Assembly: GCA_046706965.1 (NCBI GenBank)
Contig: JBJKOX010000012.1
Location: 1-45,913, forward strand
Direction of reading: 5' to 3'
Origin: Candidatus Pacearchaeota archaeon
Lineage (GTDB): Archaea > Nanobdellota > Nanobdellia > Pacearchaeales > GW2011-AR1
Length of the DNA stretch: 45,913 nt
The notes beneath the pieces were generated by a model. The model had not been told where the DNA came from and ran no database searches. It saw only the letters and a list, made by a program, of their open reading frames with translations. The position numbers and the translations under genes were made by a program. Positions within the stretch are counted from its first letter, which is position 1, and each line of letters opens with the position of its first letter. Of the stretch, positions 3,013 to 18,953 are shown one piece after another.

Positions 3013-3147
3013 ATGAAAAAATATTTGCTTCTTATTGAAGATGAGGAATTATGGGAGAAGTTCAAGAAAAGTATAGAAAAAGATATTAATACAGAAATTA
3101 TCGAATTGGTGAAAAAGAAAGTAAAGGAGGGTAAAAATGGAAAGTAA
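3013..3147 (+). CDS. 44-aa ribbon-helix-helix (Arc/CopG-like) putative DNA-binding protein
   Basis: MKKYLLLIEDEELWEKFKKSIEKDINTEIIELVKKKVKEGKNGK is absent from the ORF track because it is under 60 aa. The pattern is a beta-strand (YLLLIE), helix (EELWEKFKKSI), a loop ending in N-T-E as in Arc/CopG, and a second helix. A GGGGTGG SD lies 4-10 nt upstream. The ORF overlaps the next gene by 11 nt. Confidence 0.45.
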   Translation: MKKYLLLIEDEELWEKFKKSIEKDINTEIIELVKKKVKEGKNGK

Positions 3148-4987
3148 GAAAGCTCAAGTTACTATTTTTATAATCATAGCAGTTGTGATTGTAGCTGCAG
3201 GGTTAATCTTTTTCCTTGTTCGTTTTAATACAAATAAAACTCAACAAGTTCCATCGAGCCTGCAACCTGTTTATAATTCATTTTTAACGTGCCTTCAGCA
3301 AGAGACCTCTATGGGTATTAATGTCTTGGAGAATCAGGGGGGCTATATTTACCTCCCTCCTTTTACTCCAGGGTCAAGTTACATGCCTTTCGGATCTCAG
3401 CTTAACTTTTTAGGAAATCCCATACCTTATTGGTATTACGTTTCTGGGAATAATATTCCGACCCAGCAAGTGCCTTCTATGAATGATATGGAATCACAAC
3501 TCGCAAAGTTCATAGACCAGGGCATTCAGAATTGTGATTTTCAAGGATACGGATCCCAAGGATTTGATATCTCTTTGGGATCTCCTAATGCCACTGTAAC
3601 TATTTCAGACAATAATGTTCAAGTTAATCTTAATGCAGATTTGAGTATTACCGGGAAAAATGCAACTACTATAATCAGTAGCCATAAAGTTACAGTGAAC
3701 TCTGAACTAGGTACACTTTACAATTCTGCTGTCAAGATTTATGATTACGAGCAAAAAAGCATGTTTCTTGAAAACTATAGTATCGATACACTTTGGTCCT
3801 ATGCTCCTGTAGATGGTGTGGACATAAGTTGTGCACCGAAAACATGGAATGCAAACAATGTTTTCTCGACATTGAGGACAGCAATAGCTGAGAATACAAA
3901 TACATTAGTCAATGGCGGTTCTAAAACTAATTATTTTAATGTAAAACTTCCTGTAAGTCAAGATGTCAGATTTTTGAATTCCCCTAACTGGTCAAGCAGT
4001 TATCAGGTTGATCCTACAGAAGGTAATAGCCCGGTAATGACCGCTGGCCCTGTAGGTAATCAACAAGGATTAGGAATTTTAGGATTTTGCTATGTTCCTT
4101 ATCACTTTGTTTATAGCATTAAATATCCCGTATTAGTCCAAGTCCTGTCTTCTGAAAATGCACAGGAAATTTTCCAGTTTCCGTTTGCAGTAGTCATAGA
4201 AAATAATAATCCAAGAGAACCATTAAACACCACTGCATTTAATTCTTCTCAAGGTTCTCAACTATGTTCAGCAGGAACTTCACCAATACAGGTAACTACT
4301 ACGAATGTGGCAGGAGATCCTCTTGCAGCTAATATTTCATACTCGTGTGCTGATGCCACCTGCGGGGTAGGGGAAACATCTTCAGGGGGGACTCTTAATG
4401 GTAACTTCCCTCAATGTGTAAATGGATATGTAATTGCTTCTGCACCAGGATATGAGGATGCAAAATATCTTCTTACAACAACAACACCAGGGAGTGTTAG
4501 CATTGCTCTTCAAAAACTTTATTCTGAAAACATAATGCTCCAGGTTGATGGGCAACCCTATGAAGGTCCGGCTACTATAAGTTTTAATTCTCCAGACTTA
4601 TCCACCACCATATCTTATCCCCAGCAAAAAACCATTCAGCTTGCCGAAGGACAGTATCAGATTCAGGTTAATATATACAAAAATACCTCCATTACACTTC
4701 CAGCTACGACATCACAACAATGCACAACCGTTCCACAATCTGGCGTTTTAGGGCTTCTTGGACTTACTCAAAAAAATTGTTTTACAGTAAATGTGCCTCA
4801 ACAAATAATTTCAAATGCCCTTTCAGGAGGAGGTAATCAGACAGAGTTCATATTGGGCTCTGAGCTTCAGGCCTCAAATACAATCACAATAAATGCATCA
4901 AGCCTCCCTGTTCCAAAAACTATTCAGGATGTTCAGACAAACAATCTCTTGATAGGGCAGCAAGGCCTAGGCATAACATTCCAATAA
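3137..4987 (+). CDS. 616-aa extracellular or cell-surface protein with a pilin-like (class III-like) N-terminal signal/anchor
   Basis: There is a strong AGGAGGG SD. The N-terminus MESKKA-QVTIFIIIAVVIVAAGLIFFLV has the basic-then-A/G-then-Q plus hydrophobic-helix layout of archaeal prepilin-type signals. The rest is S/T/N/Q/G/P-rich and K/E-poor, with many N-x-S/T sequons and paired cysteines. Confidence 0.75.
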   Translation: MESKKAQVTIFIIIAVVIVAAGLIFFLVRFNTNKTQQVPSSLQPVYNSFLTCLQQETSMGINVLENQGGYIYLPPFTPGSSYMPFGSQLNFLGNPIPYWYYVSGNNIPTQQVPSMNDMESQLAKFIDQGIQNCDFQGYGSQGFDISLGSPNATVTISDNNVQVNLNADLSITGKNATTIISSHKVTVNSELGTLYNSAVKIYDYEQKSMFLENYSIDTLWSYAPVDGVDISCAPKTWNANNVFSTLRTAIAENTNTLVNGGSKTNYFNVKLPVSQDVRFLNSPNWSSSYQVDPTEGNSPVMTAGPVGNQQGLGILGFCYVPYHFVYSIKYPVLVQVLSSENAQEIFQFPFAVVIENNNPREPLNTTAFNSSQGSQLCSAGTSPIQVTTTNVAGDPLAANISYSCADATCGVGETSSGGTLNGNFPQCVNGYVIASAPGYEDAKYLLTTTTPGSVSIALQKLYSENIMLQVDGQPYEGPATISFNSPDLSTTISYPQQKTIQLAEGQYQIQVNIYKNTSITLPATTSQQCTTVPQSGVLGLLGLTQKNCFTVNVPQQIISNALSGGGNQTEFILGSELQASNTITINASSLPVPKTIQDVQTNNLLIGQQGLGITFQ

Positions 4988-4988
4988 A

Positions 4989-7900
4989 ATGAAAATAACT
5001 TTTACAGAAGATAATAGAATAAAAAGGCAAGGAACAAATAAGAATATGAAAAATATATTCCTAATTTTAGGAACAATTTTTTTAATGTTTTTTTTAGTTT
5101 CTCAGGTTTCTGCAACCTATCAAACAACTTATAATCCTGCATTCTCCCCTACATCAACGAATTATAATGTTGGAAACATATTATCCATAATTGGAAATAA
5201 CCAGTGTTCTCCTTCACAAGATTTCATTTTACAGATTAATCCAACAGGGTGCGAGGACACTCCTGTTAGAAGTGATCTTCTTGCAGATCAGAATGTCCCT
5301 GTATTTTGCCCTGTTATTGCAACGAAAATAAATCCCCTCATCAATGTTAATGACATAAATTCAATAACCTTCACAGGAAATTTTCCTCCAGGGGTTGAAG
5401 GAGTAACTTTTGTTCCATACAGGGCTGCACTTTCTCCCGCAACCATAACTTCAACAGGCGTATCTCTTCAGACAGGGCTTACACAACAACAAATAGGGGG
5501 AAATATAGGTTATGTTGTAATAGTTTTAAAACAACAGGCAAATGAATCTGCAATTCCAAAATGGATAAACGGAACATTAACTGCTCACATGAATTATAAT
5601 ATTCAGAATGCATTTGGTGTAGGTCAAGTAAACTATTATCTTCCAGACACGACAGATCAGCAATGGGCACAGAATTATAACTCCTATAGTTTCTGGGGGG
5701 GACGTGGATTCCTTCGTGCTACAGGTATAACAGGCAATAGTGCTACGATTTCTGTTTATTCTTCAACTAATGTTCCAAATACACCCGGGAATCAGAAAGT
5801 CCTTGTTTCACAATCCACACTAAATGTGGGGCAAACCTCCTCAAGCATACCTATCTCAGGGTTTAGCTATTGTTTCGGAAATATGAACGTTAAACTTAAT
5901 GGTCTTCAAAATCCAGATACTATGGCGAAGCTTGATGTAAATGGGAATACCCTTGAACTTCCTGCCGGGCAATCTTTCATAAATGGGCAGTGCAAACTTA
6001 ACAGCGTTTCTGCTCAGGGGATAGTGAGTACGGCAAGCATTTCGTGCCAAACTGATACAGGAAATGTAAATTTACCTCCTCTCACTATAAGCCCACAAAT
6101 TAATCTTTCCGTTAATGGGGCCCCTTCAAAAGCATACAGCGTCGGAGACCTCCTTTCAGCAACGTCAGATCCTTCAGAATTCGTTTATTTGGGATATATC
6201 GGAAGAGATAGCAGTGGCAATCTTTTCATAGTTCCAGTAGTAAGTCCTGCACAAAGTTCTGCAGCATTTAAACAAACAACCATCTATAATGCTTTGCCTG
6301 CTGCTATGCAATATATGTCTTGGAATTCTGGGAGCAAATCTGAAAATTTACTCAAGTCTGTTCTCGGAACTCTTGCAGGCAGCCTAGGTTCAAGTACCAG
6401 TTGGCTTGTAGCTGGAACAGCCCCTCTAGGCACAATAACTCAAGCATCAAATGGAGGAAAAGGTACTTTCAATTCCTTTAATAATATAGCTGTACTCTCT
6501 GAAACAATAAATAACCTTTTCTCTAGCGGTAATGTGCAGGATATAGTAAATAATATTAATATAAATGGACTAGTTGGCCCACAAGACGTCCCTCTTTCAG
6601 GAGATTCCAAGACATATTATGATAATGCCATAAAGGATTATCAATCCGTAATTGCAAGTTACTCCCAGGCTTCTTATCCTGATGGAAACCCCGTAACTTT
6701 TGGAGAAGAGACTTTGGCTCATGAGGCACAATTCAGTTATGATATGGGACAGAAGGCAACAGCCCAACAGCTTTGCAAACAACTTTCAAATTCATATCCC
6801 GATTCTCAACTTATACCCAACTTTTGTTCAAATTTGGACGCTTTGGCCAGCCCAACTACATCTTCACAAAGTGTTAACATAAATGGACAAACTTATGATA
6901 TCTCTTTAGAAGATGTAATTCAGCCTACCCTTAGTGATTATGGTGTTAATATTACTATAAATCAACCAGGGCAACCGACTTTGTATGCTCAGCTATCCAA
7001 GAATCAGAGATATTATATTTCCAGTACAGACTACATTTCTCTTACGGGACTTACTGCTAACTCTGCGACGTTTGATATTAGCGGAGTAACACCCCCTGCA
7101 TTACAGCAATACACAATCGCTTCCTCAAGTATAACTGCACAATTAAATGGCCCATATCAAACTTTTGGTAAAAATAAATATACTCTTGCGGTTACAGGAA
7201 TAAATCTCCATCAACTAGCTAGTGTAACTGTGCAACCTAATATAAATTATATGAATACTAATGCATCGTTCCCTTTCAATATCGGTGTTGAGAAGAGAGC
7301 AATAAGCCTTACTCCAAATCAAACGAGAAGCTTAATGAATTCAACTACAGATAAAATCCAGAAATGGACTTCAATATCAAACCAGCTTGGAACTGTTGTG
7401 ACTGATATGCAAGACACATGCCAGGCTGTTGGTGCTTATTTAACTATAAAGAATTTCATTTCTGATTTAAGTGGAGAAGGGCTTGCACGGGCTAAGGTTA
7501 TGAGTGGGCCTAACGGGTGGGCACAGAAATGTGCTGATGCGGTGAAGAACAAAAAGGATCCTGATACTGGTGCTCCTGCAACTTATACTAGCGTTGATGC
7601 TTGTCTTATCGCACACTCTTCTGAAATAGATAATGCTGTTACAGTTTATCAGAATGCGATGAATTCTCAGGATCAAACATACAAAAATATTCAGTCACAA
7701 CCAGGTGTTTCGTCGAGTTCAAATTTCTTAGGACAAACTGTTGTGGATAACTCAAAGGTTTTGGCTGCGACGGTTACTTCTACTGCAACAAGTGCTGTTG
7801 CTTCAGAGGCAAGTAGCGCAGGACTCAGTACCATAAAAATCAAGGGACAAAATGTGCCTGTCAGTGAGATAATGAATGCAGTGTCTCCTACTAATATTGA

Positions 7901-10900
7901 TGTTACTACGTGGAGAGATATCCAGCTTGAATCAAGCCTTTTGGGCTCAAGTGATAAAACTGTAAGTCAAACTGCATTGAGCGCCTTGCAGTCTGATCTA
8001 GGAACCTGGTATGGGAACAATGAAGCGGCTACACAGGTTACGAAACAGGCTCAGAGCTTGGGAGTGGACCCTTCCAAGGTTACTCAGGTAGGTTCACCGA
8101 ATACTAAGACCGAACCTTATCTGGGGCTTACTTATAATGACATTCAAAATAAAGTTAGCTTGAGCGGCGTAGCTCCTAGTACCCCTATTGCAATTTTACA
8201 AAATAGAAACACTGGACTTTTATATTATGCAGTACTTGCTTCAGTTCAGGGGGGATATGGTATATCAAAAATTTATGATCAGACAGGATCTTTGGCATAT
8301 GATGCCTCTAAGACTACAACTCCCTCTAGTACTACAAGCGGAACACAAAAGAGCACCCCTAATAATAACCTACTTACAACCTTAGGACTAGAAGGAGTTG
8401 AGTTTAAAGTAAATCCTTACCAGAATCAAATTATCAATCCAGAAGTTTCCTATTATAATACTGGGCCTTATGCAGGGCTACCTGCGGTTATTCCTTTTGA
8501 CCCAAAAGATGGATGGTATGCCTACATACAGTCTGTTTTACCTACGGGCAGCAGCTCAAACTCAATAACTCCTTATGATAAATCTGGAAGAGTTTCGACT
8601 TTATACCTTTGCAATGTTGGCTCAGTTGGTATTGTTCAGGGTCCTTCAGGAGATTCATGTGTGCAGGAAAATCTTGCTACAGGCCAGGCATACACTAACT
8701 TTGGAGGACTTTCACAAGCTCAAACAAATCAGTATATACAGTGTGCAGTTAGTGCGGTTCAGCAAGCTTCCCAGAAATATAAATCAGGTGTGAGTTCGAT
8801 ATCAATAAGTACCTCTTGTGGAGGATCTGTATCTCTTAAAGTGGGAGCACCCTCTATCGGAACCCCTGCGATACAATGTGAAGATTTCATGTCCCCTTCA
8901 GACTGCAGTCTTCTTTTCAACGTTTGTGATCCTGTAGTTTGTCCTACAAGCAGGTGCAATCTTGGAGGGGCATATCCCGTATCAAATGTTGTCCAGTCAG
9001 GGATTATTGGAAGCGTCGCATTATGCTATCCTAATGCAAAGTGGCAAGGAGGTACTGACTATTTGCCTGTTTGTGTTACAGGGGTTAAGGCAGGACTTGA
9101 TGGGTATATAAGCATGCTGAAGTCCTTCAATTCGTGTTTGAATACAAGTTTACAGACAGGGCAAGTTGTGGGAATCTGTGACGAGATAAGCGCATTTTAC
9201 AAGTGCAATTTCTTCTGGAATGATGTTTATCCACTGGCAAAGCAGGGGGCTATTTCTGTTCTTGAGTCCTCACAGGGTGAACATACTTCAGGAGGAGGAG
9301 AATATCTTAATGTACAAAACGCTATATCTAACGCGAAGAGTGCTGCTAATTATTTCACACAAACTTATAGTGCACAGTCTTCCCAGGCATTCCAAGCTAG
9401 GAGTACACAGAGCCTTCAGGCAGATGTTTGCAGTCAATATGTTTCTGCGGTTGTGCCTGAAGCTAGTAGTATCATGAATTCTCTAAGTGCTCAAGCCTCC
9501 CCTCCACAATATTTCGGATTTTTCCAATCAACACCTTACACTACAGACACAAATCCCCCAATCTCGGAGTACAAAGTTTTTTATCACATTTATGCGGGAC
9601 AGTATCCCGCTTACTATGAGGTTTATCTGAAGGGTACTCAGGGTTCATATTATCAAGATACTGCACCTACCTATCAACTTGCTCAAGGTTATATTGCATC
9701 AGGACAATCGGTGGATCAAACTCCTGACTTCACCGCTCCTACTGGCTACAATCAACTTTGTATAAATGTAAATGGTCAAGAGGATTGCAACTTTAATGAG
9801 GTATCTACAAACTTCGCTGCAAATTATCTTGCTCAGGCATATACTGCTAATCAGGCATCTCAAAATGATATTACCACAACGGCCGGATGTAGTTCTACAA
9901 ATGGAATTGTAAGGGTTTGTGCAACTAATAGTCCTGGGCAAGGGACAGACCCTAATTATGGCACAACCAATGCGATATGGCAGCCTGTAGGATATTGTGA
10001 TACCCCCAATATGAAGTGCTGGCTTAATGAACAGAGTGTCACAAGTACTATAACGGATCAGAATCTGGCGCAAGGTGCTCTGCAAACAGCTACTGCAAAT
10101 GTCCAATCATACCTTTCTTCAAATTATATACATCCTGCAGACTTTTCAGGAATAGTCTCCGCAATACAATCTCTAAGCGATCCTTTAACAATTGTTAATA
10201 ATATAACTGCGACTCTTGCCAAGATTTATTATCCTAATGAAACAGGGTACCTTACACTTTTGAGGGGAGATACATATGCAATCCTTGCCGAGGACGCGCT
10301 TTTAGCTGCTAGGAGTGGTACATCTAGTTCCGTAACACCATGTGTTAATGTCACAACAGGCCCTGTAATGACTCTCCCTATTCCCTCAGGAATGACGTGG
10401 GGACAATATTGTACTAATGCAGGTAGCAATTACGCAAGTTGCACTCCCGCCACGTGTAGTGCAAATGAAGCAGGCACATCTACATTATGTGTTAATGTCA
10501 CAACAGGCCCCGCAATGACTCTCCCTATTCCTCCCGGAATGACTCAAGAACAATATTGTACTAATGCAGGTAGCAATTACGCAAGTTGCACTCCTGTCGC
10601 TTGCCCTGTGACAAATAATCAATTGACTCAAGAAACTTCCACTTCTGGTCAGTTTACTGCCTCTAACTCACTTAAGAGCGCTATAGCAAATTCAGATTAT
10701 TCTAATCTACAATACCCTCTACTTAATCTTAATAACATTTATTATCTTTATGTTGACGGGAATTGGTATTGGTCTACTGACAAAGACAGGTGGATAAGTT
10801 CAGATCTTTCAAGCCAGTTTTATGTTTCCGATAATACCCCTGTTCAGGCAATATCTACAACTACTTTAAATTTCAACCAACAATCTAGTTCTAACCAAGC

Positions 10901-11864
10901 GCTTATAAAATCTCTTGTGGGTGTTTCCTATGGAGGTGGCTTAAATCTACTTATAGGATTTGAAGAAAAGAATGGAGGTGGTTTTATTGGTATTGGTGGC
11001 TACCCTCTTTCAACAGAACATGTTTCCATGGATTCTAGTGGAGTCTTCAAGGTTAATATAATCTCCTCTACCTCTGCTCTTCAAGGCTACCTCTTTCAAT
11101 ATTCTAATGGACAGTGGATACTTCCTCAAGGAAATCAGGTTCCTGAAATTACTAATTTACTTAACTCTCTTGCAGGGAAATCTTTTTCAGAAGGCGCACA
11201 GATTCTCTTTTCAATTGACTCTGCAGGTGCGCCTAGCACTGCTACTTCTACCACTACCTCCGGAACCGGATCAACTACAGGAATTTCATGTACTACTCAA
11301 TCTAGTTGCCAAATAGCATTAGGTAATCAAATAATGAATATTGCACAACAGGTGGCAACAAAATATTCCATATCCGACGCTCAGGTCCAACAGGACACGG
11401 GTGTGAAAAGTTTTGCTTGCCTAGCTTTATTGGTCTCTAATCTTGAGAGTGGGATACAACAATGTGTAACTTATCAACAAAACGGAAACCCTTTATATTG
11501 CGAGGGTAATCCTGGTCAAGTATTGGGTGGAGATTCTACCCAAGGGGGGAGCTTCGGAGCCATGCAAGTAAATAAGGCTGCACAATCCAATGCTTTTACA
11601 AGTTCAAACCCAAATAATGCATATAATTTCAATTACAACGTGAATTATGCTCTCAACCTTTTAGCTGGCGATTACACCACAATACCTCGAACTTACGTAT
11701 GTAATTCTAAAACTTATAGTGGATGGGAGGCTGCATTGAGAAGTTATAATGGGTGGACGTCTTCTGCTGCAGGTTGCACATCAGGGAATATTAATTATGT
11801 AGAACAAGTTCTTGGGACAAACAACAAAAATCAGGTTAATGCTTTATTCCCCCAGTGTGCCTAA
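4989..11864 (+). CDS. giant (2,291 aa) secreted surface protein with a C-terminal lytic-transglycosylase (SLT-like) domain
   Basis: An uninterrupted 6.9-kb ORF starts 1 nt after the previous stop. The alternative start at 5046 gives MKNIFLILGTIFLMFFLVSQVSA-TYQ, a classic Sec signal peptide. The composition is S/T/N/Q/G-rich. There is a 10-Cys core, a tandem 49-aa Cys module, a T/S linker, and then the ES...GAMQVN...YNGW motifs. Confidence 0.9.
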   Translation: MKITFTEDNRIKRQGTNKNMKNIFLILGTIFLMFFLVSQVSATYQTTYNPAFSPTSTNYNVGNILSIIGNNQCSPSQDFILQINPTGCEDTPVRSDLLADQNVPVFCPVIATKINPLINVNDINSITFTGNFPPGVEGVTFVPYRAALSPATITSTGVSLQTGLTQQQIGGNIGYVVIVLKQQANESAIPKWINGTLTAHMNYNIQNAFGVGQVNYYLPDTTDQQWAQNYNSYSFWGGRGFLRATGITGNSATISVYSSTNVPNTPGNQKVLVSQSTLNVGQTSSSIPISGFSYCFGNMNVKLNGLQNPDTMAKLDVNGNTLELPAGQSFINGQCKLNSVSAQGIVSTASISCQTDTGNVNLPPLTISPQINLSVNGAPSKAYSVGDLLSATSDPSEFVYLGYIGRDSSGNLFIVPVVSPAQSSAAFKQTTIYNALPAAMQYMSWNSGSKSENLLKSVLGTLAGSLGSSTSWLVAGTAPLGTITQASNGGKGTFNSFNNIAVLSETINNLFSSGNVQDIVNNININGLVGPQDVPLSGDSKTYYDNAIKDYQSVIASYSQASYPDGNPVTFGEETLAHEAQFSYDMGQKATAQQLCKQLSNSYPDSQLIPNFCSNLDALASPTTSSQSVNINGQTYDISLEDVIQPTLSDYGVNITINQPGQPTLYAQLSKNQRYYISSTDYISLTGLTANSATFDISGVTPPALQQYTIASSSITAQLNGPYQTFGKNKYTLAVTGINLHQLASVTVQPNINYMNTNASFPFNIGVEKRAISLTPNQTRSLMNSTTDKIQKWTSISNQLGTVVTDMQDTCQAVGAYLTIKNFISDLSGEGLARAKVMSGPNGWAQKCADAVKNKKDPDTGAPATYTSVDACLIAHSSEIDNAVTVYQNAMNSQDQTYKNIQSQPGVSSSSNFLGQTVVDNSKVLAATVTSTATSAVASEASSAGLSTIKIKGQNVPVSEIMNAVSPTNIDVTTWRDIQLESSLLGSSDKTVSQTALSALQSDLGTWYGNNEAATQVTKQAQSLGVDPSKVTQVGSPNTKTEPYLGLTYNDIQNKVSLSGVAPSTPIAILQNRNTGLLYYAVLASVQGGYGISKIYDQTGSLAYDASKTTTPSSTTSGTQKSTPNNNLLTTLGLEGVEFKVNPYQNQIINPEVSYYNTGPYAGLPAVIPFDPKDGWYAYIQSVLPTGSSSNSITPYDKSGRVSTLYLCNVGSVGIVQGPSGDSCVQENLATGQAYTNFGGLSQAQTNQYIQCAVSAVQQASQKYKSGVSSISISTSCGGSVSLKVGAPSIGTPAIQCEDFMSPSDCSLLFNVCDPVVCPTSRCNLGGAYPVSNVVQSGIIGSVALCYPNAKWQGGTDYLPVCVTGVKAGLDGYISMLKSFNSCLNTSLQTGQVVGICDEISAFYKCNFFWNDVYPLAKQGAISVLESSQGEHTSGGGEYLNVQNAISNAKSAANYFTQTYSAQSSQAFQARSTQSLQADVCSQYVSAVVPEASSIMNSLSAQASPPQYFGFFQSTPYTTDTNPPISEYKVFYHIYAGQYPAYYEVYLKGTQGSYYQDTAPTYQLAQGYIASGQSVDQTPDFTAPTGYNQLCINVNGQEDCNFNEVSTNFAANYLAQAYTANQASQNDITTTAGCSSTNGIVRVCATNSPGQGTDPNYGTTNAIWQPVGYCDTPNMKCWLNEQSVTSTITDQNLAQGALQTATANVQSYLSSNYIHPADFSGIVSAIQSLSDPLTIVNNITATLAKIYYPNETGYLTLLRGDTYAILAEDALLAARSGTSSSVTPCVNVTTGPVMTLPIPSGMTWGQYCTNAGSNYASCTPATCSANEAGTSTLCVNVTTGPAMTLPIPPGMTQEQYCTNAGSNYASCTPVACPVTNNQLTQETSTSGQFTASNSLKSAIANSDYSNLQYPLLNLNNIYYLYVDGNWYWSTDKDRWISSDLSSQFYVSDNTPVQAISTTTLNFNQQSSSNQALIKSLVGVSYGGGLNLLIGFEEKNGGGFIGIGGYPLSTEHVSMDSSGVFKVNIISSTSALQGYLFQYSNGQWILPQGNQVPEITNLLNSLAGKSFSEGAQILFSIDSAGAPSTATSTTTSGTGSTTGISCTTQSSCQIALGNQIMNIAQQVATKYSISDAQVQQDTGVKSFACLALLVSNLESGIQQCVTYQQNGNPLYCEGNPGQVLGGDSTQGGSFGAMQVNKAAQSNAFTSSNPNNAYNFNYNVNYALNLLAGDYTTIPRTYVCNSKTYSGWEAALRSYNGWTSSAAGCTSGNINYVEQVLGTNNKNQVNALFPQCA
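10341..10594 (+). repeat. in-frame tandem duplication (147-bp period) encoding two 4-Cys modules
   Basis: Segments 10341-10447 and 10488-10594 are near-identical at the DNA level. They encode CVNVTTGPVMTLPIPSGMTWGQYCTNAGSNYASCTP and CVNVTTGPAMTLPIPPGMTQEQYCTNAGSNYASCTP. Confidence 0.9.
11380..11800 (+). other. SLT / family-1 lytic transglycosylase-like catalytic domain of the giant protein
   Basis: The motifs appear in canonical order: E-S (candidate catalytic Glu codon at 11445-11447, ...NLESGIQQC...), G-A-M-Q-V-N (11562 onward) and A-L-R-S-Y-N-G-W (about 11735-11757). A TSTTTSGTGSTTG linker precedes the domain. Confidence 0.7.
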
Positions 11865-12016: not shown

Positions 12017-12943
12017 CTAATTTTTTACATGTATTTCACTTTCTTTTTGCTTGATTTTATCTTCTAATTTAAGTTTTTCAATTAGTTCTTTGTATCTATT
12101 TCTTATTGTTACTTCTGTTATACCTGCAATATCTGCTACTTCTCTCTGGGTTTTTTTCTCATCATTCATTAATGCGGCTACATAAAGTGCTGCAGCAGCA
12201 ATTCCCGCAGGACCTCTCCCTGATGTAAGTTCTACATCTTCCGCTTGTTTCAGAACTTTAAGTGCATTATTCTGTGTTTTTGGCGAAAGTTTCAATACTG
12301 AAGAGAATCTTGAAATGTAATCCTTAGGACTTGATTGTTTTACCTTTATTCCCAGTTTTCTGATTATGAACCTGTAGGTCCTTCCAATTTCTTTTCTTTC
12401 AACATCTGAGGCCGTTGCCATCTCATCAAGAGTTCTAGGGATGTTATATGATCTACATGCTGCATAAAGACAAGCAGCAATTACAGACTCCATGCTCCTG
12501 CCCCGAACAAGCCCTCTTTGAAGAACATAATTATATATTCTTGCTGCATCATCACGCACTACATTAGGTAAATGTAAATATGAGGATATGACCCTTAATT
12601 CTGCCATAGCTAGCCTTAAGTTACGTTCAATAGATGTTGAAACACGTTCTTGCCATTTTTTGAGCCTAAGGAATTTTCTAGTCTGTTTTGGATCTAGTCT
12701 ATAAATATCAGATATTTCTCCTACATTTGTTGTAAGGCCCTTATCAAACTTCTGGATACTTGTTGGTGCACCTCCCCTCCCTTTCTTTTCACCCTTATCA
12801 AACTTACTAGAAAGATCCACACCAGTGTCTACCATTTTCTCTTCAACTACAAGTCCGCAATCATTGCAGATTACTTCTCCAAGATGGGGATCATATGTAA
12901 GATGAATGCTTCCACACTCAGGACATTTTTTTATAAAGGCCAT
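12017..12943 (-). CDS. tfb: transcription initiation factor B (TFB/TFIIB)
   Basis: The 308-aa protein has an N-terminal Zn ribbon (CPECGS...CNDCGLVV), a B-reader/linker and two cyclin-fold repeats (...RGRSMESVIAACLYAACR... and ...GRGPAGIAAAALYVAA...). Confidence 0.95.
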   Translation of the reverse strand: MAFIKKCPECGSIHLTYDPHLGEVICNDCGLVVEEKMVDTGVDLSSKFDKGEKKGRGGAPTSIQKFDKGLTTNVGEISDIYRLDPKQTRKFLRLKKWQERVSTSIERNLRLAMAELRVISSYLHLPNVVRDDAARIYNYVLQRGLVRGRSMESVIAACLYAACRSYNIPRTLDEMATASDVERKEIGRTYRFIIRKLGIKVKQSSPKDYISRFSSVLKLSPKTQNNALKVLKQAEDVELTSGRGPAGIAAAALYVAALMNDEKKTQREVADIAGITEVTIRNRYKELIEKLKLEDKIKQKESEIHVKN

Positions 12944-15072: not shown

Positions 15073-16764
15073 ATGAAAAGAGAGATGAGTGCCTTTGCTT
15101 TAGTTTTGGCGGCAGTTCTACTTTTTGCCTATTTATTCAATCTTAATCTAACTGGTTTTGCTGTCTATCAATCGGATCTCTCAGGAGGGGCCTATAGCGG
15201 GACTTTTTATAATGGGAGTGCAATAGTATTAAATTCAAGCGCCAATCTAACTTCAGGTAGTTATACTTCCTCAGTTTTAAACGCAGGGAATAAGTCCCTG
15301 TGGAATAATCTAACATGGGTGGGATCTGTGCCAAATGGTTCTTCATTATCTTTCCAAGTGACAACCTGTTCTGATTCAAATTGCTCTGGTGCTAGTTTTT
15401 CTAATGTTACAACGAACAATAATACAATTGACTTGTCTCCAATGAACTTAACTTCTCAATATCTCCAATACAAAGTCCTGTTTTCAAGAGAGAGCATTAA
15501 CATTACAAGTCCTTCTTTGGTGGGCGTATCTTATTATTATTCTACATTAAAACCTTCAACTTCCAATAATGAAACTTCAAATCAAACTAATTCCACAACT
15601 GAGACTGTTTTAAACACTTCCGCATCTATTATTGATCCTTCCGGAACACTTGATTCTCAAAGAGACATCTCTTTGAATTATATTGCATCAGGAACGAACA
15701 TTACCTGCTCTTATTCCATTCTTAACACATCAGGAATAGTTGTAGATAACACCACCCTTATAGGGTGCGGAAACCTAACTTTTGATCTCTCAAGCGACGG
15801 AACCTATAATCTTCATCTTTATGTGAACGGAACAGGAGGATTTGTTCAGAAGAGTTCTAAGTTTATTGTTGATACCTCATCAAATCAGAATCAACAGCAA
15901 ACACAGCAGAATACTACTCAGCAGCAACAAGTAAATACTACTCAGCAACAACAGCAGCAAAAGACCATCCAGACAATAACTGCCTTATCTGCTTCAGATA
16001 TCTCTTCTGGAAATTTTACCCCTGGTGAATCCGAAAACCTAACTTTTAATGTTAAGAATGTTGGGACTGCTCCTGTAAGTTCGTGTATTCTTGTATTTAA
16101 AGGAAATTATGCTTCGTGGATTTCGGCTCCTAAAGTTAATAAGAATTTAAGTCCAGGACAAACTGCATCATTCTCTTTTACAGTGAAAGTGCCCCTGAAT
16201 GTATCAGATGGATCTTATCTTGAGAGTGCTTCTGCATCATGTTTAGAAACTTCTGTTTCCAAGAACTTTAATATTAATGTTGAAAAACCAAAATTAAATG
16301 CGACCATTCTAAATTCACGTAGGACTAGTCTTGGTAATGTTAAGGTTTCTTATTCCTTATCTGAATTGTCAGGTCAGGACCAAAACGTTTCTATTTCCTT
16401 TGATATTTTGAATTCAAATAATACCAAAATAGGAAATGCTACGGATAAACAAGAGCTTCAAGCAAATTCCACTAAGACTTTTAGTCTTAACATCCCTATA
16501 AATTCTACTGCAGAAGGAAACATGAGTCTTTTAGGGGAATTTGATTCAAAAGTTTATTCTAGCAAAATTTCAGAGCCTATAACTTTAGGTGCACCAATAA
16601 GCGGCTTTGCAATATTAGAGAATATGGGTACCGGAAGTTATGCAGTTGTCGGGATTGTTGTTGTGGTCCTCCTTGCATTATTCTTTGGTATTAGAAGAGC
16701 TAAGAAAAAATCAAGGAAAAAACCTTCCGCTAACGAAAGAAATTCTGTGGAAAGCGAGAAATAG
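15073..16764 (+). CDS. cell-surface (S-layer-like) glycoprotein with an N-terminal signal and a C-terminal TM anchor
   Basis: The 563-aa protein has the signal MSAFALVLAAVLLFAYLF and the C-terminal anchor YAVVGIVVVVLLALFFGIRRAKKKSRKK. It contains dozens of N-x-S/T sequons, a Q-rich linker, and a CARDB-like segment (LTFNVKNVGTAPVSSC). Confidence 0.75.
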   Translation: MKREMSAFALVLAAVLLFAYLFNLNLTGFAVYQSDLSGGAYSGTFYNGSAIVLNSSANLTSGSYTSSVLNAGNKSLWNNLTWVGSVPNGSSLSFQVTTCSDSNCSGASFSNVTTNNNTIDLSPMNLTSQYLQYKVLFSRESINITSPSLVGVSYYYSTLKPSTSNNETSNQTNSTTETVLNTSASIIDPSGTLDSQRDISLNYIASGTNITCSYSILNTSGIVVDNTTLIGCGNLTFDLSSDGTYNLHLYVNGTGGFVQKSSKFIVDTSSNQNQQQTQQNTTQQQQVNTTQQQQQQKTIQTITALSASDISSGNFTPGESENLTFNVKNVGTAPVSSCILVFKGNYASWISAPKVNKNLSPGQTASFSFTVKVPLNVSDGSYLESASASCLETSVSKNFNINVEKPKLNATILNSRRTSLGNVKVSYSLSELSGQDQNVSISFDILNSNNTKIGNATDKQELQANSTKTFSLNIPINSTAEGNMSLLGEFDSKVYSSKISEPITLGAPISGFAILENMGTGSYAVVGIVVVVLLALFFGIRRAKKKSRKKPSANERNSVESEK

Positions 16765-18855: not shown

Positions 18856-18953
18856 TGTCTCTGGGGAGATTTTAACTCCCGACCTCTGCCTTTCTCAACG
18901 AACTGGTTTTTATGTTCATGAGAGCAGCGCTCTAAACCCTGAGCTACAGAGAC
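18856..18953 (-). tRNA. tRNA with CAU anticodon (elongator Met or Ile2) and a ~25-nt intron after position 37
   Basis: The minus strand reads GTCTCTG TA GCTC AGGGTTTA GAGC G CTGCT CTCATG[AACATAAAAACCAGTTCGTTGAGAA]A GGCAG AGGTC GGGAG TTAAAAT CTCCC CAGAGAC A. G1-C72 argues against an initiator. The T-loop has A at the position where C56 is expected. Confidence 0.7.

Follow-up and report, generated by a model that had tools for sequence, protein, structure and literature searches.

A divergent GH23 domain at the C-terminus of a giant, predicted extracellular protein from a Pacearchaeota-type archaeon

The giant gene and its product

The 45,913-nucleotide stretch of Candidatus Pacearchaeota archaeon DNA analysed here (the window; contig JBJKOX010000012.1 of assembly GCA_046706965.1) carries a giant gene preceded by a partner gene (Table 1). 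The C-terminal domain of the giant protein, called the head below, is supported by sequence profiles and by a structural model as a real but divergent GH23 domain (SLT / goose-lysozyme superfamily). An earlier note on this DNA had read the C-terminus as a family-1 lytic transglycosylase behind a T/S-rich linker. The strings quoted there are all present, in order, in the plus-strand translation of 4989-11864, including the linker APSTATSTTTSGTGSTTG (residues 2081-2098), CLALLVSNLESGIQQC with E2153-S2154 at 11445-11450, GGSFGAMQVNKAAQ with G2190 at 11556 and WEAALRSYNGWTS with Y2253 at 11745, and E2153 is correctly numbered from the ATG at 4989. The T/S-rich linker does stand ahead of the domain (residues 2081-2097), and the interval given for the domain, 11380-11800, falls inside it, although it covers only residues ~2131-2271 of 2098-2291 (nucleotides 11280-11861).

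Table 1. Partner gene, giant gene and features of the giant protein, with their positions in the window
Feature	Position	Strand	Residues	Basis or remarks
Partner gene, 616 aa, N-terminus KKAQVTIFIIIAV	3137..4987	+		Stop at 4987, giant ATG at 4989
Giant open reading frame, 2,291 aa (2,291 codons), stop included	4989..11864	+		Multidomain protein of the Pacearchaeota/Woesearchaeota giant family
Sec-type signal peptide, MKNIFLILGTIFLMFFLVSQVSA followed by TY	5046..5117	+	20-43	Hydropathy
Conserved scaffold	5136..10268	+	~50-1760	Coverage by homologs
Two tandem Cys-containing repeats of ~49 aa	10329..10607	+	1781-1873	Translation
Trp-rich adaptor module, ...YYLYVDGNWYWSTDKDRW...LFSIDSAG	10710..11228	+	~1908-2080	Ahead of the head
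Thr/Ser/Gly-rich linker	11229..11279	+	2081-2097	Translation
Divergent GH23 (SLT / goose-lysozyme-like) domain, C-terminal ~190 residues	11280..11861	+	2098-2291	Homology
Motif I, E2153-S2154, putative catalytic Glu	11445..11450	+	2153-2154	E 52/52, S 47/52 relatives
Insertion between motifs I and II, subfamily-specific	11451..11555	+	2155-2189	~18-column gap versus canonical SLT (hhalign)
Motif II, G2190-A-M-Q-V-N2195	11556..11573	+	2190-2195	G 52/52, M 50/52, Q 50/52, N 46/52
Motif III, Y2253-N-G-W2256	11745..11756	+	2253-2256	Y, N, G invariant; W 50/52
Motif IV, Y2270-V-E-Q-V2274	11796..11810	+	2270-2274	Y 51/52, V 51/52, E 43/52, V 48/52

The giant protein has a single strongly hydrophobic segment, the signal peptide: its hydropathy maximum lies at residues 23-41 (2.32), the next best segment reaching 1.38. 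An equivalent Sec-type segment is present in each of the 11 N-termini that were inspected, those of this protein and of 10 homologs, and in most of them it precedes a [VI]S[SA]A-like site at which the signal peptide would be cleaved. The protein is poor in charged residues, K+E+R amounting to 6.2% versus 25-27% in the transcription factor TFB and an aminoacyl-tRNA synthetase, while Q+N+S+T reach 37%. Because of the conserved signal peptide and the 48 cysteines in this Lys/Glu-poor and Gln/Asn/Ser/Thr-rich sequence, the protein is predicted to be exported via Sec and to be extracellular. The G+C content (GC) of the gene (0.385-0.42) exceeds that of the DNA outside it (0.33-0.36); the rise follows the amino-acid composition and is shared with the upstream partner gene. 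An open reading frame on the minus strand within the gene (9699-10106) was treated as spurious, as the coding sequence to which it runs antisense is conserved.

Between scaffold and head the two tandem repeats start at residues 1785 and 1834 with the consensus CVNVTTGPxMTLPIPxGMTxxQYCTNAGSNYASCTP, which can also be written CVNVTTGP.MTLPIP.GMT..QYCTNAGSNYASCTP, and are followed by the Trp-rich adaptor module. The latter gave no match in a Pfam search. Its motif was found by scanning in the tails of 12 of 82 giants (this protein and 81 homologs), and modules resembling it by eye stand ahead of the heads in the tails of P0012, P0026 and P0054.

Homology of the head

The head was not recognised directly. 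A Pfam search, which had been named beforehand as a test of the SLT assignment, was negative for PF01464 with the single sequence: neither the whole protein nor the domain matched at E <= 1, and the Pfam gathering threshold was not reached. The single-sequence searches returned only what are taken to be chance matches, to TPR_6 (E = 0.078) and to a cephalosporin acylase (E = 1.5). A word-indexed homolog search with the head found one fragment (P0001, where an equivalent linker precedes the same domain type), and a two-sequence profile of the domain had no match in the PDB. When a two-sequence profile was searched exhaustively with HMMER, 235 relatives were recovered at E <= 0.001, most of them being the C-terminal ~190 residues of proteins of ~2,000 residues.

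The subtype was represented by an alignment (A3) of 52 sequences with 25-55% identity to the query domain, to which the counts in Table 1 refer. PF01464 is matched individually by 14 of these 52 members at E <= 0.1, the best at 7.1e-6. The PDB matches of the A3 profile are all GH23 and consist of six distinct g-type lysozyme sequences (E = 0.0076-0.16) and EtgA, the transglycosylase of a type III secretion system. A second alignment (A4) comprised 13 Pfam-recognised SLT domains of paralogous giants, and its own PDB matches include MltC (3e-17), MltE (1.9e-12), Slt70 (7.9e-10) and g-type lysozymes (5.1e-8 to 7.8e-7). At the level of sequence we regard the comparison of these two profiles as the decisive link to SLT. 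With hhalign A3 and A4 match with a probability of 99.7% (E = 2.9e-27), and the register places ES on the invariant QES, GAMQVN on GLMQIN, YNGW on YNGW and YVEQV on [FY]VEEV. The SLT/GH23 assignment of the earlier note is upheld in this way, by profiles and by a model that retrieves mainly GH23 folds.

Catalytic motifs, insertion and cysteines

The motifs lie well outside what chance would produce. The only invariant columns of A3 are E2153, G2190 and Y2253-N2254-G2255, while S2154, M2192, Q2193, W2256, Y2270 and V2271 are each conserved in at least 90% of the 52 sequences. Downstream of the Glu, GAMQV at residues 2190-2194 satisfies the family-1 motif G-[LAV]-M-Q-[IV]. S-Y-N-G-W occupies residues 2252-2256, and motifs III and IV are in register with canonical SLT domains. 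Motif IV, the fourth family-1 motif and absent from the list in the earlier note, aligns to [FY]VEEV of the canonical domains and to YsnDV of g-type lysozymes.

The hallmark blocks had been said to follow each other in the correct order and spacing. The order holds but the spacing does not, since 37 residues separate the Glu from the Gly of GxMQ (30-39 across the subtype) in place of the 14-16 of most Pfam-positive paralogs. The non-canonical distance is explained by a Cys-bridged insertion of ~20 residues, which contains the C2159/C2171 pair, NPLYC and a GD (D2182) aligned with GD86 of g-type lysozymes. C2159 and C2171 (C62 and C74 of the domain) are both present in 51 of the 52 relatives and both absent in one. 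C2238 and C2263 also co-vary, both being present in 43, neither in seven and only one in two. Altogether the head has eight cysteines, each kept in 34-51 of the 52 relatives, and the co-varying ones are consistent with disulfides in an exported protein. The extra cysteines had been taken as a sign of an extracellular location, which agrees with their conservation and with the Sec signal peptide.

Predicted structure of the head

The AlphaFold2 model of the head built with A3 is mostly helical (pLDDT 93.9, pTM 0.91) and places E2153, residue 56 of the domain, at the C-terminal end of the helix formed by residues 45-57. Searched with Foldseek against the PDB it gave 39 matches, of which 38 have lysozyme-like folds; they include MltE, g-type lysozymes such as goose egg-white lysozyme (GEWL), a GH23 chitinase, Slt70, LtgA, MltF, SltB1-3, GH124 and others. 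The best bacterial match is MltE (probability 0.95, TM 0.47), and the GH23 chitinase of Ralstonia sp. A-471 (3w6b, 3w6e and 3w6f) is among the top matches (TMt 0.45-0.51). Against viral models the top matches are the PRD1 transglycosylase, GEWL-like proteins and the SLT domains of tape-measure or internal-virion proteins, with probabilities of ~1.0 and TM values of 0.41-0.49. Prediction of the structure had been proposed as a check: in the model the Glu does lie at the end of a helix and mainly GH23 folds are retrieved, although the similarity is only moderate (TM ~0.45). The model is consistent with, and does not prove, a lysozyme-like all-alpha fold that is GH23-like but distant.

Scaffold, homologs and variable heads

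The full-length search yielded 82 giants of 1.3-2.8 thousand residues, this protein included. The homologs that carry a name belong to Pacearchaeota or Nanoarchaeota, and P0036 is labelled Patescibacteria. Residues ~50-1760 are covered by 60-81 of the 81 homologs versus 4-16 for the tail, which is variable beyond ~1800. The giants bearing PF01464 (P0010, P0027, P0046 and P0050, for example) match at E = 0, the aligned 42-84% of the length being 32-37% identical. Conservation across the family is highest at residues ~1290-1500 (window ~8860-9500), a Cys-rich stretch that has many invariant Cys and Gly columns and follows the pattern QC.DFMSP.DC.LLFNVCDPV.CP.SRC..GG.YPV...GGGEY.

The scaffold has no match in PDB, Pfam or PHROG. 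Its profile returned only ribosomal entries from the PDB (E >= 0.09), which were judged to be chance, and the AlphaFold2 model of residues 1145-1700 is poor (pLDDT 58.8, falling below 40 over the most conserved, Cys-rich stretch). Membrane insertion by the scaffold core was considered and found to be unsupported, as no segment besides the signal peptide exceeds a hydropathy of 1.4.

Scanning the 82 giants with hidden Markov models of A3 and A4 located the divergent SLT subtype in 15 and a canonical SLT in a further 13. The precomputed Pfam annotation flags none of the 15. Two cargo positions exist on the one scaffold, the C-terminus and an internal slot at residues ~660-840. At the C-terminus a canonical SLT is found in P0010 and P0046, an Amidase_3 in P0044, a VanY along with the divergent SLT in P0035 and, in one case (P0007), a TPM domain. 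An SLT lies at residues ~660-840 in P0039 and P0053, and an M23 domain at residues 687-789 in P0052.

Tails with unannotated Cys/His domains and no recognised head were also observed, among them those of P0014, P0016, P0019, P0020, P0024, P0025, P0026 and P0054. One such domain (type A; Cys...His, CW[DE]A...GHN[VA]IF) occurs in eight giants, and no relative of it was found in the PDB. Another (type B; VCARFV...GD[IL]...TQHITIF) occurs in nine and is often followed by a copy that lacks the Cys. Type B has a weak match to the NlpC/P60 dipeptidyl-peptidase VI (3npf, E = 0.03), and the unannotated tails match Pfam Amidase_5 at E = 0.04. Both types may be further wall peptidases.

Partner gene and genomic neighbourhood

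The 46-kb window is archaeal and comes from a Pacearchaeota-type DPANN archaeon, as the earlier note had assumed for the protein. The giant gene is flanked by TFB (12017-12943, minus strand) and archaeal ribosomal protein genes, the window containing S3Ae (eS1), L44e (eL42) and S8e (eS8) as well as the tRNA-splicing endonuclease EndA. The TFB is 91% identical to that of the Candidatus Pacearchaeota archaeon metagenome-assembled genome (MAG) GCA_040879785.1. Two tRNAs on the minus strand, at 1433-1527 (95 nt) and 18856-18953 (98 nt), were found by Rfam and missed by ARAGORN in bacterial mode; these long tRNAs are probably intron-containing archaeal tRNAs.

The partner gene ends 1 nt ahead of the giant ATG and the two genes are co-translated. 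The partner protein has no Pfam or PHROG match. Its N-terminus, also written KKAQVTIFIIIAVVIV, resembles by eye an archaeal class III (type IV prepilin-like) signal peptide, and its orthologs begin with GK[KR]GQ[VI]T[IL]FIIIA. Five homologous loci (L001-L005) were compared, two from NCBI MAG assemblies and three from other metagenome contigs, and in all of them a gene of 611-629 codons lies immediately upstream of the giant. The junction is a start/stop overlap in L003-L005, the genes abut in L001 and they are 63 nt apart in L002. As in the window, the pair stands between rpS3Ae-L44e and TFB-S8e in four of the five loci and partly so in the fifth. The syntenic slot holds a divergent SLT in the window and in L001, an Amidase_3 in L002, a divergent SLT with VanY in L003, an internal M23 in L004 and a canonical SLT in L005.

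Two small open reading frames lie upstream on the plus strand. The one at 2685-2894 encodes 69 residues that include a pair of hydrophobic segments, and its counterparts in L001 and L002 are 35-42% identical; the one at 3013-3147 encodes a 44-residue Lys/Glu-rich protein (MKKYLLLIEDEELWEKFKK...) that is nearly identical in L002. As both are conserved, the cassette may hold four genes.

Compared with L001 and L002, identity is 88-91% for TFB, 66-77% for L44e, 61-63% for S3Ae, 53% for the MBL hydrolase, 48% for the partner (in these two aligned orthologs) and 32-34% for the giant. The partner-giant cassette is therefore the fastest-evolving part of the neighbourhood, but the margin is not extreme, and the idea that the giant is extremely divergent relative to its genome was only partly borne out, the flanks other than TFB standing at 53-77%.

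Elsewhere in the window, a 563-residue protein encoded at 15073-16764 (plus strand) is hydrophobic near both ends, with a segment at the N-terminus and, at the C-terminus, an anchor that basic residues follow. It also contains a poly-Gln stretch and dozens of N-x-S/T sequons, and has the look of a surface protein that is glycosylated or of S-layer type.

Proposed function and alternative explanations

It is likely, in our judgement, that the giant is exported and carries a catalytically competent GH23 head that cuts bacterial peptidoglycan; its export, activity, substrate, chemistry and biological role are all inferred. The head would be tethered by the flexible Thr/Ser linker at the far end of a scaffold of ~2,100 residues. 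By analogy with SLT/MltE and goose lysozyme, Glu2153 at the helix end would act as general acid and cleave the beta-1,4 bond between N-acetylmuramic acid (MurNAc) and N-acetylglucosamine (GlcNAc), the strand lying in a cleft lined by GAMQVN, SYNGW and YVEQV. Lytic-transglycosylase chemistry, with a 1,6-anhydro-MurNAc product, would be favoured over hydrolysis because the residue equivalent to Asp97 of goose lysozyme is an Asn and no second carboxylate is available, although the choice between the two chemistries lies beyond what a sequence can decide. Pacearchaeota-type archaea are not known to make peptidoglycan, so the substrate would be a bacterial wall. The scaffold might present the head so that the wall of a bacterium serving as host or prey is breached locally or bound, or so that material can be scavenged from it; a local breach could serve attachment or uptake, and killing is another role that it might have.

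Several observations weigh against this proposal. As single sequences neither the giant nor the head has an SLT match in Pfam, NCBIfam, PHROGs or the PDB, and the distance from the Glu to GxMQ departs from that of most Pfam-positive paralogs, even from the 20-24 residues of P0043 and P0053. The Foldseek E-values are at least 0.09 (PDB) and at least 0.011 (viral models), with TM ~0.45 (range 0.38-0.49), and owing to these weak values the head is to be seen as a distant GH23 variant. GH23 also includes a chitinase, which is among the structural matches. About 51 of the 82 scaffold homologs are without a recognised enzymatic head, so that the function of the scaffold does not depend on a GH23 head. 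Moreover, activity, secretion and a bacterial partner are predictions for the whole giant family.

The head could instead be a hydrolytic goose-type lysozyme, a muramidase leaving reducing MurNAc ends, with the same fold and substrate; we consider this unlikely but give it real weight. Goose-type lysozymes combine Glu73 with the acidic residues Asp86 and Asp97 (GEWL numbering). The best PDB matches of the subtype profile are g-type lysozymes and not bacterial SLTs, and the head shares with them an extended ES...GD...G-x-G-x-MQ loop in which D2182 aligns with GD86. However, D2182 is conserved in only 26 of the 52 relatives and the Asp97 equivalent is Asn2195 (Asn in 46), so that the Glu alone of this set is fully kept, and in the profile-profile comparison bacterial-type SLT domains match far better. 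That the head acts on another GlcNAc polymer, such as chitin or an envelope glycan of a host archaeon, seems improbable to us. The Ralstonia chitinase among the top structural matches would fit such an activity, as would the fact that the hosts of cultured DPANN archaea are archaea, according to PMC8204110 and PMC11537232. Nevertheless the relatives at sequence level are SLTs and lysozymes, and what the Amidase_3, VanY and M23 domains of the orthologs attack is the MurNAc-L-Ala bond or the stem peptide, which are found only in bacterial murein. Since these alternative heads attack murein-specific bonds and the producer is archaeal, a bacterial wall is the most likely substrate.

Still less credit can be given to a non-catalytic wall-binding module, that is an adhesin anchoring the archaeon to a bacterial surface. 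Attachment is one of the roles proposed in PMC8204110, and the many scaffold homologs without a recognised enzyme would agree with it, but the Glu is present in 52 of 52 relatives and the four cleft motifs are the most conserved positions, as would be expected of an active enzyme. A non-archaeal origin of the giant gene is highly improbable, whether by mis-assembly or mis-binning of a fragment from a bacterium or phage or by a recent transfer that led to a dead end. Its raised GC and the Patescibacteria label of P0036 could suggest such an origin, but the GC shift tracks the composition shared with the partner, there are no PHROG matches, and the gene lies within the contig between archaeal ribosomal protein genes and TFB, in an arrangement that recurs in four of the five independent homologous loci and partly in the fifth.

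Keeping to the peptidoglycan-cutting GH23 head as the preferred explanation, we put forward only tentatively a wider idea: the giant and its prepilin-like partner may form a wall-breaching cassette of the Pacearchaeota core genome, fixed at rpS3Ae-L44e/TFB-S8e, whose heads are exchanged like the tips of polymorphic toxins. The set of heads would comprise the Pfam-invisible GH23 subtype, canonical SLT, Amidase_3, VanY, M23 and the Cys/His domains. If so, more Pacearchaeota than are now counted would target bacterial walls, the choice of head would follow the chemistry of the wall of the bacterium used as host or prey, and the scaffold would be a new kind of surface delivery structure, possibly associated with a pilus.

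Significance and comparison with known systems

Genomes offer few clues to the partners of ultra-small archaea that have no wall. Enzymes that degrade peptidoglycan are one of them, and they point to bacteria and not to archaea as hosts or prey. Castelle et al. (2021; PMC8204110) describe giant Pacearchaeota/Woesearchaeota proteins (fam00969) of up to ~3,000 residues with a transglycosylase domain, for which they predict an extracellular location and the binding or degradation of bacterial walls; by their account the family had already been observed in three genomes (Rinke 2013; Castelle 2015). A 'large lytic murein transglycosylase' (GH23) of Woesearchaeota is reported by Vigneron et al. (2022; PMC9723730), who interpret it in favour of predation. 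The DPANN transglycosylase point is restated by 2024 studies in mBio and the ISME J, the latter noting that the gene is absent in some Pacearchaeota, and PMC11537232 is an example of a survey in which murein transglycosylase is reported to be missing from some Pacearchaeota. A 2025 PLoS Biology paper shows that archaeal peptidoglycan hydrolases can kill bacteria and remarks on the prominence and diversity of these homologs in Nanoarchaeota.

As such domains have already been published for DPANN archaea, the surprise that the earlier note implied at an SLT domain in an archaeal protein was overstated, and our finding is the recognition of a known kind of protein. Its interest lies mainly in the annotation blind spot and the cassette architecture, and less in the presence of SLT in an archaeon. 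Surveys of murein transglycosylase in Pacearchaeota may undercount, because the head subtype (15 of 82) escapes Pfam annotation. In the literature passages available there was no mention of the Pfam-invisible subtype, of different heads being exchanged at a single conserved locus or of the prepilin-like partner, which is no proof of novelty. The conserved locus, the swapped heads and the partner offer handles on the contact of DPANN archaea with bacterial walls, and disulfide-stabilised compact muramidase-type domains are candidate antibacterial enzymes (compare PMC12352652).

The giant is a member of the published Pacearchaeota/Woesearchaeota family of transglycosylase giants (PMC8204110): lineage, size class and predicted extracellular location are common to both, and its scaffold is homologous to that of members with a Pfam-recognised SLT. 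What sets it apart is a head that Pfam does not flag, of a subtype with the Cys-bridged insertion. With the bacterial family-1 lytic transglycosylases (MltE/EmtA, MltC, Slt70; PF01464, GH23) the head shares the order ES, G-x-M-Q, Y-N-x-G, Y-V-x-x-V and, in the model, the Glu at a helix end and a fold consistent with the all-alpha lysozyme-like one. It differs from them in the spacing of motifs I and II (37 versus ~15), in the eight conserved cysteines, in the want of a direct Pfam match and in an identity of only 11-13%; moreover it is fused to an archaeal scaffold of 2,100 residues, whereas they are fused to a lipoprotein anchor or a superhelical domain. The g-type lysozymes (GEWL 153L, salmon 3MGW, cod 3GXK) are the best direct PDB matches of the subtype profile, at marginal E-values (0.0076-0.16). 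Like the head they have an extended GD loop before G-x-G-x-MQ, and they are disulfide-stabilised and secreted, as is predicted for the head, but the head has a longer loop and the Asn at the Asp97 position.

Polymorphic toxin and effector systems (Zhang et al. 2012; PMC3482391) have a long conserved N-terminal region for delivery and swappable C-terminal enzymes. The giants resemble them in a scaffold of ~1,750 residues with variable tails (divergent or canonical SLT, Amidase_3, VanY, TPM, Cys/His domains). However, some cargo is internal, at residues ~660-840, no known trafficking domains (Rhs, PAAR, filamentous haemagglutinin etc.) were detected, and no immunity gene is seen or expected, since the producer would lack the target polymer. 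The peptidoglycan hydrolases of virions (PRD1 P7 and the SLT domains of tape-measure or internal-virion proteins) are the top structural matches of the head in the viral library. Although the giant has no sequence relationship to phage proteins (no PHROG match) and is a chromosomal gene at a core locus, these are the nearest functional analogy: they likewise mount a small GH23 domain on a structural protein of great length, so that a bacterial wall is breached locally from outside.

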